NCBI GenBank assembly: GCA_947501885.1
Contig: CANMXN010000003.1
Coordinates: 54,946-118,945, forward strand
DNA length: 64,000 bases
Direction of reading: 5' to 3'
Origin: an uncultured Sphingorhabdus sp.
GTDB taxonomy: Bacteria; Pseudomonadota; Alphaproteobacteria; Sphingomonadales; Sphingomonadaceae
A model generated the notes under the pieces. The model ran no database searches. It worked only from the letters and a program-made list of their open reading frames with translations, and was not told where the DNA came from. This document shows positions 59,478 through 63,417 of this stretch, one piece after another. Positions within the stretch are counted from its first letter, which is position 1; every line of letters starts with the position of its first letter. A program made the translations under genes and the position numbers.

Positions 59478-60377
59478 TTGGCGGACCAAAAACCCCTAAA
59501 TTTTCAGGACATGATCCTGCGTTTACATAGCTTTTGGTCTTCAAAAGGTTGCGCAATATTACAGCCTTATGACATGGAAATGGGCGCAGGAACATTTCAC
59601 AGCGCGACCACATTGCGCGCGCTTGGCCCTGTTCCTTGGAACGCAGCCTTTGTGCAGCCGTGCCGCCGCCCAACCGATGGCCGTTATGGCGAAAACCCCA
59701 ATCGATTGCAGCATTATTACCAATATCAAGTCATCCTCAAACCATCGCCCTCCGATATTCAGCAGCTCTATTTGGATAGTTTGCGCGAAATTGGCATCGA
59801 TCCGATGCTGCACGACATAAGATTTGTTGAGGATGATTGGGAAAGCCCAACGCTTGGCGCATGGGGGCTTGGCTGGGAAGTATGGTGCGATGGCATGGAA
59901 GTCACGCAATTTACATATTTCCAGCAAATGGGTGGTTTTGATTGCAAGCCCGTTGCGGGTGAACTGACCTATGGTTTGGAACGGCTGGCCATGTATATCC
60001 AAGGCAAAGATAGTGTCTTTGATCTGGATTATAATGGTAGTGGCGTAACTTACGGCGATATATTCCATGAAAATGAAGTGCAAATGAGCACATGGAATTT
60101 TGAAATAGCGGACACCGAAACATTGTTCAAACAATTTGAAATGGCGACAGCCGAATGCGAAAATTGCTTGGAAAAATCTCTGCCTATTCCCGCCTATGAA
60201 CAAGCGATTAAGGCTAGCCATACGTTCAATCTATTGCAAGCACGCGGCGTGATTAGCGTACAAGAACGGGCATCCTATATGGGCAAGGTGCGCGATCTGG
60301 CAAAAGGCGCGTGCGAAAAATGGATAGAGATTAACAAAGAAGAATGGGCGCAAAAATTCCCCCAATGGAGTTTGTGA
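59478..60377 (+). CDS. glyQ: Glycine--tRNA ligase alpha subunit
   Basis: [31 protein letters not shown]-type ELTYGLERL. Confidence 0.98.
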
Positions 60378-60976
60378 TGATGGAGATTGTAAGCAATTTT
60401 ATGAACAGTGTTCATCTTGAGTCTGTCGCCAAAAGCACCACTCGCAACCGTAATAACACTCGTTACCCCACCGCCACTCGTAACCGCACCACTCTCCGTC
60501 ACGGCACTGCCACTTGTAACCGCAGCACTCTTCGTCGCCCCACCACCGTTCGTCACGCCGCCGCTACACGTCATTCTACCACCACTCGTCACCCTGAATT
60601 TATTTCAGGGTCTATTAGTGCTGGTAAGATACTGAACCAAGTTCAGCATGACGAAGGTGTTATACTGAAACAAGTTCAGCATGACGAATGCGGTGAAATC
60701 ATGTATGATTTAGTGAACACCGTTCGTCCTGAGCCTGTCGAAGGACAAGGTAGTGTGGTTCATGCTTCGACAAGCTCAGCACGAACGGCAAAGCTACTAG
60801 ATCAAAAGAGGTTCACCGATCTTGTCGAAGGACAGGTGATGCGCTCTTATCATGATTCACTCGGCGTGATACTGAAACAAGTTCAGCATGACGAAGATGT
60901 TATACTGAACCAAGTTCCGCATGACAGTAATCGATTGCCGAACCAAGTCCCACATGACGGGGGTGACAGGTCATGA
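60377..60976 (+). CDS. Repeat-derived 199-aa ORF filling the glyQ-glyS gap (coding status uncertain)
   Basis: ATG overlaps the glyQ stop (TGATG), TGA overlaps the glyS start (ATGA), no internal stop; built largely from repeats. Confidence 0.45.
   Translation: MMEIVSNFMNSVHLESVAKSTTRNRNNTRYPTATRNRTTLRHGTATCNRSTLRRPTTVRHAAATRHSTTTRHPEFISGSISAGKILNQVQHDEGVILKQVQHDECGEIMYDLVNTVRPEPVEGQGSVVHASTSSARTAKLLDQKRFTDLVEGQVMRSYHDSLGVILKQVQHDEDVILNQVPHDSNRLPNQVPHDGGDRS
60439..60600. repeat. Degenerate 18-bp tandem array, 9 units
   Basis: Units begin at 60439, 60457, 60475, 60493, 60511, 60529, 60547, 60565 and 60583; consensus about CACTCGTCACC-n7. Confidence 0.85.
60587..60959. repeat. Palindromic repeat family B (CGTC-tagged): one left arm and five right arms
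   Basis: Left CGTCACCCTGAATTTATTTCAGGGTC at 60587-60612; right arms like GATACTGAAMCAAGTTCAGCATGACG at 60628, 60661, 60868, 60901 and 60934. Confidence 0.85.
60720..60788. repeat. Palindromic repeat family A, copy 1
   Basis: CCGTTCGTCCTGAGCCTGTCGAAGG...CTTCGACAAGCTCAGCACGAACGG; decayed half-copy at 60811-60835. Confidence 0.9.
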
Positions 60977-63417
60977 GCGATTTTCTACTCGAATTACGAT
61001 GCGAAGAAATCCCCGCCCGCATGCAGGCCAAGGCCCGCGCCGATTTGGAGAAATTATTCACAGCCCAGCTTAAAGATGCTGGATTAGAAGTCCAAAGCAT
61101 CACCACTTATAGCACGCCGCGCCGTTTAGCATTGATAGCGCGCGGTCTGCCCAAGCAAACCGAAGCCGTGCGCGAAGAACGCAAAGGCCCAGCAGCAAAT
61201 GCGCCCGAACAAGCGCTAGCAGGATTCTTACGCAGTACAGGATTAAAGCGCGAAGATTTGGTGGAACGCGACGTCAAAGGCAAAGCGGTATTGTTCGCAA
61301 TCATCGAAAAACCAGGTCAACCCACGACGGATATATTGTCGGCTGCTATACCCGCGATTATAGCGGCATTCCCATGGCCCAAGTCACAGCGTTGGGGCGA
61401 GGCTAGCATTAGCAGTGAGAGTTTACGTTGGGTGCGGCCTTTGTCGAGTATCATTGCATTATTCGATGGCGAAGTGGTTGATTGCGAAGTGCATGGAATT
61501 GCTTCTGGCCGTACCACTATGGGCCATCGTTTTATGGCGAATAGTGCCGTTCGTGCTGAGCCTGTCGAAGCACGGGAAACCAGCTCTAGCACCCTTCGAC
61601 AAGCTCAGGGCGAACGGACTTCTAACACCGCGATAAGCATCGAAACGGTTGATGAATATCTGCCCAAATTGCGCGCCGCTCATGTGATAGTTGATCATGA
61701 AGAACGGCAAAATATTGTGCGAGATGGTGCAGCAAAAGCGGCTAGCGATGCAGGGCTATCTCTTGTCGAAGACGAAGGCCTAGTGATTGAAAATGCAGGT
61801 CTGACCGAATGGCCCGTGCCGCTGTTGGGCCGTTTTGACGAGGCTTTTTTGGATGTTCCCGAAGAGGTTATTCAGCTTACCACGCGCATTAATCAGAAAT
61901 ATTTTGTTGCCAGAGAGAAACAGGGCGATAGTGGTGGTAAATTGACCAACGCCTTTGTCTGTACCGCGAACATACATGCGATTGACGGCGGCAGCGCGAT
62001 TGTCGCGGGCAATGAAAAAGTATTGGCGGCGCGACTGGGCGATGCGAAATTCTTTTGGGAATTGGATCAGAAAACGCTGCTTAAAGAGCATGCCGAAAAA
62101 TTATCGAATATCGTGTTTCATGAAAAGCTTGGAACGGTGGCTGATAAGGTGGAACGCGTTGCGAAATTGGCGCGCTGGCTCTGCGAAGAAGGCATTGTTA
62201 AGCCTATCGCCAAAAACACCGTTCGTCCTGAGCCTGTCGAAGGACAGGGTGTTCATACTTCGACAAGCTCAGCACGAACGGCTGAAGAACTTGCTGATCT
62301 CGCCGAGCAAGCAGCGCGCTTATGCAAGGCTGATTTGGTCACCGAAATGGTGGGTGAATTTCCCGAATTACAAGGGCTCATGGGCGGATATTATGCCGCC
62401 AAAGAAGGATTACCAATCGAAGTATCCGAAGCAATCCGCGACCATTATAAACCCGTGGGCCAAAACGATGATGTACCGACAGATCCCGTCACCGTTGCAG
62501 TGTCGCTGGCTGATAAGTTGGATACGTTGGTAAGTTTTTTCTGGGAAGAAATGATGCCCACTGGATCGAAAGACCCCTTCGCACTCAGAAGAGCCACTAT
62601 TGGCATTATCGAATTAATTACAGCAAACAATCTCAGGATTAGAATGAATTTAGCTTGTGCGCAGACATTCCTTCCGTTGGCAAACAGAGACGCAATAGCA
62701 ATCTTCAATGAAGGTGCAATATCGCGAGTCCAAGAGATATCAAAACCACAATATGATCCAATAAGCGGCATATTTACTGTTATTAACCAAGACAGTCTTA
62801 AAGGATTGAATAAGGAAGTTTGGGATCAGCTAAATGAAAAGAATAAAGCCATCAGAACTAAGCTTAACGTCTTCTTCGCTGACCGTCTCAAGGTTCAGCA
62901 AAAAGAGGCTGGTGTTCGTCATGATTTGATTGATGCTGTGTTTGCGCTTGGCCAAGAAACAAATGAGCGCGAGGATGATTTGGTCCGTTTGCTGGCTCGC
63001 GTTCATGCTTTGCAGGATTTTGTCACCACCGATGATGGTGTGAATTTATTGGCGGGCTATAAACGCGCATCGAATATCCTCAAAAAAGAAGCACCAGATA
63101 CGCTTGATAACAGCAATGATATGAACAATAGCGAAATTGTTATTTTTGAAGCACCATCGGATGAACCCGATCAATCCACGGCTTTGCAAAATGCCTTAAA
63201 CGCAGCCGAGCCAAAGGCAGCCGAAGCCATTGAAAGCGAAGATTTCGAAGGCGCGATGAGCGCGCTGGCATCGCTGCGCACGCCCATCGATGCATTTTTC
63301 GACAATGTCATGGTCAATGATGAAGATGCAGCAAAGAAAAAATATAGATTAGGATTATTATCACGTTTCCGTGATGCTGTGCATCGCGTTGCTGATTTTT
63401 CCAAAATAGAAGGTTGA
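60973..63417 (+). CDS. glyS: Glycine--tRNA ligase beta subunit, with in-frame insertions
   Basis: LLELRCEEIP, TPRRL, WVRPL, GNEKVLAARL.DA.FF, EFPELQG, GSKDPFALRR, FFDNVMVN. Confidence 0.97.
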   Translation: MSDFLLELRCEEIPARMQAKARADLEKLFTAQLKDAGLEVQSITTYSTPRRLALIARGLPKQTEAVREERKGPAANAPEQALAGFLRSTGLKREDLVERDVKGKAVLFAIIEKPGQPTTDILSAAIPAIIAAFPWPKSQRWGEASISSESLRWVRPLSSIIALFDGEVVDCEVHGIASGRTTMGHRFMANSAVRAEPVEARETSSSTLRQAQGERTSNTAISIETVDEYLPKLRAAHVIVDHEERQNIVRDGAAKAASDAGLSLVEDEGLVIENAGLTEWPVPLLGRFDEAFLDVPEEVIQLTTRINQKYFVAREKQGDSGGKLTNAFVCTANIHAIDGGSAIVAGNEKVLAARLGDAKFFWELDQKTLLKEHAEKLSNIVFHEKLGTVADKVERVAKLARWLCEEGIVKPIAKNTVRPEPVEGQGVHTSTSSARTAEELADLAEQAARLCKADLVTEMVGEFPELQGLMGGYYAAKEGLPIEVSEAIRDHYKPVGQNDDVPTDPVTVAVSLADKLDTLVSFFWEEMMPTGSKDPFALRRATIGIIELITANNLRIRMNLACAQTFLPLANRDAIAIFNEGAISRVQEISKPQYDPISGIFTVINQDSLKGLNKEVWDQLNEKNKAIRTKLNVFFADRLKVQQKEAGVRHDLIDAVFALGQETNEREDDLVRLLARVHALQDFVTTDDGVNLLAGYKRASNILKKEAPDTLDNSNDMNNSEIVIFEAPSDEPDQSTALQNALNAAEPKAAEAIESEDFEGAMSALASLRTPIDAFFDNVMVNDEDAAKKKYRLGLLSRFRDAVHRVADFSKIEG
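61547..61617. repeat. Palindromic repeat family A, copy 2, inside glyS
   Basis: CCGTTCGTGCTGAGCCTGTCGAAGC...CTTCGACAAGCTCAGGGCGAACGG; read as VRAEPVEARETSSSTLRQAQGER. Confidence 0.92.
62219..62281. repeat. Palindromic repeat family A, copy 3, inside glyS
   Basis: CCGTTCGTCCTGAGCCTGTCGAAGGACAGGGTGTTCATACTTCGACAAGCTCAGCACGAACGG; read as VRPEPVEGQGVHTSTSSART. Confidence 0.92.

Follow-up and report, generated by a model that had tools for sequence, protein, structure and literature searches.

Within 1.5 kb of the glycine-tRNA ligase operon of an uncultured Sphingorhabdus sp., a short palindromic repeat occurs in two nearly identical copies, one in the spacer between glyQ and glyS and one in frame inside glyS. 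What does this near-identity record: a recent copying event, as an earlier note on this DNA had proposed, or something older? We approached the question from a 64,000-nt stretch of contig CANMXN010000003.1 (positions 54,946 to 118,945, forward strand; hereafter the window), together with its source genome (assembly GCA_947501885.1, here G000; 2.65 Mb, 43% G+C, 21 contigs, stated completeness 100%) and the relatives G041, P0003, P0005 and P0006. The three copies at glyQS are called e1 (spacer), e2 (the glyS copy in question) and e3 (a further copy in glyS). Taken together, our results make it probable that e2 is an old, locally copied and tolerated non-autonomous doublet of repetitive extragenic palindrome (REP)-like units, with constrained arms and occasional conversion, belonging to a family whose full-length form carries a GIY-YIG gene.

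The three copies lie at the following positions of the window:

62219-62281, plus strand: e2, palindromic doublet core inside glyS, 63 nt (left arm 62219-62243, 25 nt; loop 62244-62256, 13 nt; right arm 62257-62281, 25 nt)
60720-60788, plus strand: e1, paralogous doublet in the spacer open reading frame between glyQ and glyS, 69-nt core
61547-61617, plus strand: e3, third copy of the family, at glyS site A, more diverged than e1 and e2

Both of the matches reported in the earlier note were reproduced: AACACCGTTCGTCCTGAGCCTGTCGAAGGACA (32 nt) is identical at 60716-60747 and 62215-62246, and CTTCGACAAGCTCAGCACGAACGGC (25 nt) is identical at 60765-60789 and 62258-62282, the span given there for e2 exceeding the core by four flank bases on the left and one on the right. 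The translations were likewise as described, with the e2 core read in frame as about GlyS residues 415-437 (NTVRPEPVEGQGVHTSTSSARTA) and the spacer frame read across e1 as NTVRPEPVEGQGSVVHASTSSARTA. A 6-nt indel and two substitutions separate the two loops, giving a whole-core identity of 88%. Searching with the arm 25-mer at up to 3 mismatches returned three matches in the window, compared with 0 in 100 shuffles; the third is e3, whose arm order is opposite to that of e1 and e2 and whose right arm is in another reading frame (LRQAQGER).

As gene-sense RNA, e2 folds into a long hairpin (-37.2 kcal/mol, z = -6.0) with two internal mismatches whose positions are identical in e1, e2 and e3. Each arm in turn forms a small hairpin, in which positions 7-11 pair with 23-27 (5-bp stem, 11-nt loop). 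Across 63 distinct arms, 3 of the 5 stem pairs show compensatory changes (T-A/C-G, C-G/G-C and C-G/T-A), and Watson-Crick pairing reaches 80%, compared with 16-37% when the partner is slid; in short copies, one unit type reads GYCCT..AGGRC and the other GTGYT..AGCAY. Because each arm forms a hairpin by itself with a covarying stem, the element is a doublet of two inverted REP-like hairpin units.

For seven intragenic copies with orthologues in both G000 and G041, we then counted the differences part by part. Arms differed at 11/364 positions (3.0%), loops at 17/106 (16%) and flanking coding DNA at 760/5261 (14.4%), so that the arms evolve about 5 times more slowly than the coding DNA around them (Fisher p = 1.5e-12). 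Since each copy contains about 13 fourfold-degenerate sites in the frame used, peptide-level selection cannot explain this conservation, and since locus-specific arm variants, such as CAGCAGGAACGG in ileS, are common to both species, general homogenisation between loci does not account for it either. Constraint on the arms acts at the nucleotide level.

Such constraint could mean that a host function keeps the hairpin, whether as a messenger RNA structure that tunes glyQS or pauses translation at the domain border, or as a recombination-limiting single-stranded DNA site like the Neisseria NTS, where Ssn/NTS modulates transformation (PMC11893778). In keeping with this idea, the arms are conserved 5 to 10 times more strongly than coding or fourfold sites, in contrast to the drifting loops and immediate flanks; the stem within each arm covaries; and 6 of 10 independent loci, distributed over C1, C2 and C3, are in tRNA charging or modification genes (glyQS, valS, ileS, pheT, truB and the gatC-gatA spacer). 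Yet the closest outgroup and 36 of 120 GlyS homologues (counts taken over related, not independent, sequences) carry no insert at all, unrelated repeat families occupy the same loop, both arm orders occur, and the enrichment in synthetase genes may come about because copies survive where genes are large and essential and have tolerant linkers. We regard a host function as rather unlikely, and note that it would be compatible with the best explanation.

The relationship between e1 and e2 is recorded outside their cores, in a non-palindromic flank:

62203-62218, plus strand: 16-nt flank CCTATCGCCAAAAACA before e2, shared with the spacer copy
60422-60437, plus strand: remnant of this flank in the G000 spacer, TCTGTCGCCAAAAGCA, 3 mismatches

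In the relatives, the flank before e1 reads CCTGTCGCCAGAAACA and is identical to that of e2 (in P0006, CCTGTCGACAGGAACA) at 12-14 of 16 positions at the anchored position; the remnant in G000 is now parted from e1 by later repeat insertions. Across the whole G000 genome, at up to 2 mismatches, the flank of e2 matched only itself, and no such flank was found beside family copies in other genes or other genomes, making it specific to the glyQS copies in the four genomes examined. A shared flank that is unique in the genome argues for local copying, and thus supports e1 and e2 as true paralogues in which one event copied core and flank together over 1.5 kb.

Identity of the cores, which the earlier note had taken as its evidence, carries no such information. 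Within G000, e1 and e2 are indeed the most similar pair (0.884), with a tandem pair in the methylmalonyl-CoA mutase gene nearly equal (0.883), but comparable identities are reached outside it: 0.91 between e2 and a copy in an unrelated Sphingomonadales metagenome-assembled genome (MAG), and 0.89 between e1 and a copy in another. Because copies in unrelated genomes are equally similar, and the arms change very slowly, core identity reflects the master sequence of the family and is no evidence on local copying. This is also what gives some weight to the reading in which e1 and e2 are independent insertions of one master copy and their identity is simply the family consensus: the exact left-arm 28-mer occurs at more than 120 loci in many phyla (Alpha-, Beta- and Gammaproteobacteria, Chloroflexota, Omnitrophota, Acidobacteriota and others), e2 is closer to the unrelated MAG copy than to e1 (0.91 vs. 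0.88), and arms evolve slowly everywhere. We nevertheless consider it unlikely, as independent insertions do not account for the anchored 16-nt similarity upstream of both cores, present nowhere else in the genome and beside no other copy.

Gene conversion, the alternative that the earlier note had offered, is visible between exactly these two copies, in one relative. The e1 loop of P0006 reads GGATTATACCGTTCATGC, which is the e2 loop with two differences, whereas its close kin G041 and P0003, like G000, carry AAGRTRGYGTSG. Over 21 nt, the P0006 loop has 6 changes, each of which brings it nearer to e2, against a divergence of 1-2% in the rest of the region; it is a gene-conversion patch between e1 and e2. 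The e2 loop of G000, for its part, has lost 6 nt relative to the other genomes.

With local copying supported, the remaining question is when it occurred. All three elements are present at the same sites in G041 (~88% nucleotide identity), P0003 and P0006, while P0005 lacks all three and has clean empty sites, with site A reading GGCCATCACTTC joined directly to CATTCATCGGGC and site B reading ATTGT, CGATGGCGAT and GCTGAT in succession, colinear with more distant empty alleles. A stretch of 94 nt (62199-62292) thereby corresponds to 10 nt in P0005 (I-V-D-G-D-A-D), and the part unlike the empty allele is as follows:

62200-62292, plus strand: glyS segment unlike the empty allele, K410-L440

In a tree built on GlyS residues 1-556, P0005 branches outside the four carriers (support 95/91), so that the three gains fall on one short branch. 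G000 and G041 differ at 0.317 of fourfold sites (0.120 of all coding sites), and since the copies occupy orthologous sites at that divergence, the glyQS copies are old and fixed, not recent. More broadly, every intragenic copy in G000 is common to G041, and differences between the two genomes are confined to fast-changing intergenic repeat clusters. In public sequencing runs, the share of the sequence words recovered never exceeded 0.30, and matches came from relatives at ~90% identity only.

These orthologues largely refute a recent copy or ongoing conversion in G000 by a currently active family, which we hold to be very unlikely. In its favour, no other two copies in the genome resemble each other more than e1 and e2 do, the arms of the two differ at 2 sites in G041 but nowhere in G000, and conversion occurs in P0006. 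Set against this are the 0.32 fourfold divergence between genomes that carry the same sites, the match of the G000 arm states to the family consensus, so that they are retained rather than newly homogenised, the difference between the e1 and e2 loops in G000, and the lack in G000 of both genome-specific intragenic copies and a cognate nuclease gene. Of the proposal of recent local copying, the local part thus stands on the shared flank and the recent part falls, and recent activity of the family finds no support in this genome. An assembly or binning artefact is practically negligible, with three elements at the same sites in four independent assemblies and on metagenome contigs covering the region.

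Our preferred account, an old and locally copied doublet, runs as follows. The e1/e2 twin and the e3 insertion probably arose in the common ancestor of this species and its sister clade, after the P0005 lineage had split off. A nuclease, or stalling at the hairpin, may cause breaks whose repair copies or converts nearby units, and one such break- or stall-induced ectopic repair at a hairpin would have copied the e1/e2 module over 1.5 kb. Selection would then have let copies persist only where a tolerant linker of a long essential gene reads them in frame as a hydrophilic peptide, and the identity seen today would reflect nucleotide-level constraint on the arms together with occasional conversion between nearby copies.

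Several points weigh against this account. A FastTree of full-length GlyS puts P0005 sister to G000 (support 96), a grouping under which P0005 must have lost all three elements, unless these are of lateral origin; we trust the tree of residues 1-556 more because the C-terminal part of these glyS genes is a mosaic, but the conflict between the trees stands. Homology downstream of the two cores is weak and inconsistent (p = 0.02 to 0.57), and so gives no direction for the copying. Filled alleles in distant clades share the flanking K-P and E-E-L, which a purely local origin of e2 leaves unexplained. Constraint on the arms holds in a genome that has no nuclease gene, and with an assembly in 21 contigs a missed nuclease gene is possible, although completeness is stated as 100%.

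The operon itself is a hotspot, as the earlier note had suggested: 3 of the ~13 loci in G000 lie within 1.6 kb at glyQS, and both glyS sites have been filled repeatedly among the GlyS homologues, which are from Sphingomonadaceae. At site A, 27 of the 120 homologues carry the element family, 10 carry other repeat families and 83 are empty (least changes on the tree, 18); at site B the corresponding numbers are 28, 56 and 36 (least changes, 22). The site B loop is thus filled in 84/120 homologues, by many repeat families, and whatever the family, filled alleles all read VK-P...(E)L-AD, whereas empty alleles all read VK(G/C)D-AD. Import of the site B segment from a P0016-like donor was also considered and gave no signal in sliding windows, in which the low identity at GlyS 503-613 proved to be a region variable in all comparisons.

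Beyond glyQS, G000 contains about 22-24 arms, forming 10 doublets and 3 single arms (13 loci), and G041 contains 33; among 40 relatives the number per genome ranges from 0 to ~100. Ten of the 13 loci in G000 lie inside open frames, the loci other than glyQS being in the genes for methylmalonyl-CoA mutase, valS, ileS, pheT, truB and a SufC-type ATPase, in the gatC-gatA spacer and, in one case, intergenic. In every open frame of G000 the first arm is read as V-R-x-E-x-V-E and the second as (P)STSSxRT, except in the site A copy (LRQAQGER), and the alternative open frame of the first arm, PFVLSLSK, is used inside no G000 gene. No target-site duplication was found at any of 10 copies or at two empty/filled pairs, and comparison of G000 with G041 gave no clean empty/filled pairs in intergenic DNA, where the regions are scrambled by other repeats; a miniature inverted-repeat transposable element was rejected on the same ground, inverted arms being present but no target-site duplication. 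Rfam at a permissive threshold gave sub-threshold chance matches only (microRNA and small RNA models), and a limited literature search found no paper on the signature strings of the family. The repeat, with its peptides VRPEPVEG, STSSART, LRQAQGER and FDKLRANG in many annotations, is very widespread and unnamed in the literature searched.

Two further observations concern individual loci. In the mutase gene, the two tandem copies lie in the linker preceding the B12 domain, where element and flank are tandemly duplicated in frame with an 87-nt period (C1:471335-471481), giving 4 arms in G000 and 5 at the orthologous place in G041 (L188). In a Methylophilus MAG (L062), the element is in frame in tgt.

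What might mobilise such a repeat? The Y1 transposase (PF01797) is absent from G000 and present in 11/41 genomes when relatives are included, with no relation to copy number and no adjacency to arms, and a REP-associated tyrosine transposase (RAYT) was rejected as mobiliser on these grounds. G041 has a 1.1-kb stretch that G000 lacks, in which two inverted arms bracket a 94-aa gene encoding a GIY-YIG domain (PF01541, 7e-18), the arm-gene-arm unit lying at 686-1135 of L181 (C1:317885-318334). The same arrangement occurs in G018 (L204) and G038 (L212), as well as in four loci picked by the 28-mer alone (L060, L081, L126 and L095, from Parerythrobacter, Methyloglobulus, a betaproteobacterial MAG and a Dehalococcoidia MAG), and so spans Alpha-, Beta- and Gammaproteobacteria and Chloroflexota. 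By its sequence organisation, this arm-GIY-YIG-arm unit is a candidate for the full-length form of the element. Close homologues of the GIY-YIG gene are present in 7/10 genomes with at least 10 arms, compared with 2/31 others (Fisher p = 1.6e-4), an association suggesting that the nuclease may move the repeats. The 94-aa gene is absent from the 21 contigs of G000, whose GIY-YIG genes are UvrC and one other small gene with no arms nearby, and the G000 copies therefore look like, and probably are, orphans. Against NCBIfam, the 94-aa protein had no match.

The closest described counterparts to the family are the Ssn nucleases with their SRM/NTS hairpin repeats (Chenal et al. 2025, PMC11893778). 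As in that system, a small single-domain GIY-YIG gene lies between inverted repeat copies (here in other genomes), the repeat forms a hairpin whose unpaired 5' part is conserved, copy number tracks presence of the gene, and the distribution covers several phyla, with Sphingomonads among the rich hosts. Unlike Ssn/SRM, the arms here have a 5-bp stem and an 11-nt loop, copies are mostly intragenic doublets and the gene is absent from G000; the published SRM pattern, HGTCWYN(0-2)YYVSBRHN(0-5)WNVSBRGN(0-2)RNCYNB (PMC11893778), gave 0 matches in e1, e2, e3 and 60300-62400 on both strands. It is possible, and we put it forward tentatively, that the family is an undescribed Ssn-type partner pair, in which a GIY-YIG nuclease recognises a hairpin target outside the published SRM motif and its cuts drive homing-like copying and conversion.

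In its genic behaviour the element instead recalls the Rickettsia palindromic elements (RPE; Ogata et al. 2000 and 2002, via PMC10969869), which are likewise palindromic selfish DNA lying in frame in housekeeping genes, encoding a hydrophilic peptide at a tolerated surface site, with copies that are old and common to species. Here too, we found an in-frame palindrome in a conserved gene, orthologues without the insert and a loop position that fits the predicted fold. By description the two are set apart: the present element measures 63-72 nt rather than about 100-150, its host is free-living and marine, and its family is cross-phylum where RPE are genus-specific.

Resemblance extends to the GTAG- and CGTC-tagged REPs, including intragenic ones (Di Nocera et al. 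2013, PMC3733652), in which short hairpin units form head-to-head heterodimers with 20-100-nt spacers, some wholly within open reading frames, and of which CGTC families are common in Sphingomonads. Those repeats are defined by a terminal tag, an 8-9-bp stem and a 4-5-nt loop (PMC3733652), and assignment to them was rejected, as the arms here have no fixed tag (the equivalent positions covary), a 5-bp stem and an 11-nt loop. REPIN-RAYT systems (Bertels and Rainey 2011, PMC3116915) share the long hairpin made of two inverted REPs and a spacer, and orthologous persistence over long times; unlike them, G000 has no Y1 transposase, and 10/13 of its loci are intragenic where REPINs are mostly extragenic. 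In sum, the element behaves like an RPE or an intragenic REP, and the family resembles an Ssn/SRM pair whose motif is new.

The genes and frames that host the copies are the following:

59478-60377, plus strand: glyQ, alpha subunit, upstream gene of the operon (PF02091 in the orthologues of relatives)
60344-60976, plus strand: repeat-filled spacer open frame, overlapping the end of glyQ and the start of glyS
60973-63417, plus strand: glyS, glycine-tRNA ligase beta subunit, 814 aa (PF02092, 8.6e-177; best PDB match 7yse_C)

GlyS contains the Pfam domains tRNA_synt_2f and DALR_1, and its alignment with the E. coli beta subunit (7yse_C) breaks at the inserts, at 194/197 for site A and 378-386 for site B. 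An AlphaFold2 model built with 81 homologues (mean predicted local distance difference test score, pLDDT, 85.4) assigns pLDDT <50 to residues 192-210 and 415-429 and places site B between predicted helices 389-405 and 437-450. The e2 peptide is accordingly predicted by the model to sit in a disordered inter-domain loop directly before the HD domain. Most likely, e2 is translated as ~21 hydrophilic residues that the enzyme tolerates; the predicted tryptic peptides through the insert are NTVRPEPVEGQGVHTSTSSAR and TAEELADLAEQAAR.

Other parts of the region are variable in their own right. Between 62600 and 62870 (GlyS ~543-633), nucleotide identity falls to 27-48% even between relatives ~90% identical elsewhere, and length differs as well, making this a third variable region, one with no recognisable repeat. 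The last third of glyS in P0006 (L194) is ~53% identical to close kin, compared with 95% for the first two thirds, and resembles a replaced segment. Upstream of e1, the spacer contains a 30-nt unit made of a truncated left arm and CCAGAAACA, present once in P0006, twice in G041 and three times in P0003 (L179/L193/L194). In P0005 the sole spacer element is an older, degenerate one; in the other genomes, the e1 module seems to have inserted into the left arm of that element. An in-frame insert of ~175 aa between the two domains of truB (C1:710688-712079) repeats the components of 60380-60976 of the window, and their order: truncated hairpin ends in an 18-nt array come first, followed by a CGTC-type palindrome, two 'ILNQVQHD' repeats and, last, a single VRPEPVEG arm.

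For the reading of such loci in general, near-identity of two hairpin-repeat copies is not a clock: the arms here are almost unchanged while one-third of the synonymous sites around them have changed. Within one bacterial family, and with at least 22 changes on the tree, one loop of an essential enzyme keeps absorbing selfish DNA as protein sequence. The small GIY-YIG gene is a candidate for the spread of a widespread repeat, and possibly a new specificity among the Ssn single-strand nucleases. If the Ssn-type pairing is true, it would explain the glyQS twins, the repeated refilling of the GlyS loop in Sphingomonadaceae and the near-invariant arms across phyla, and the in-frame copies in synthetase genes would be maintained sites, not decaying junk.

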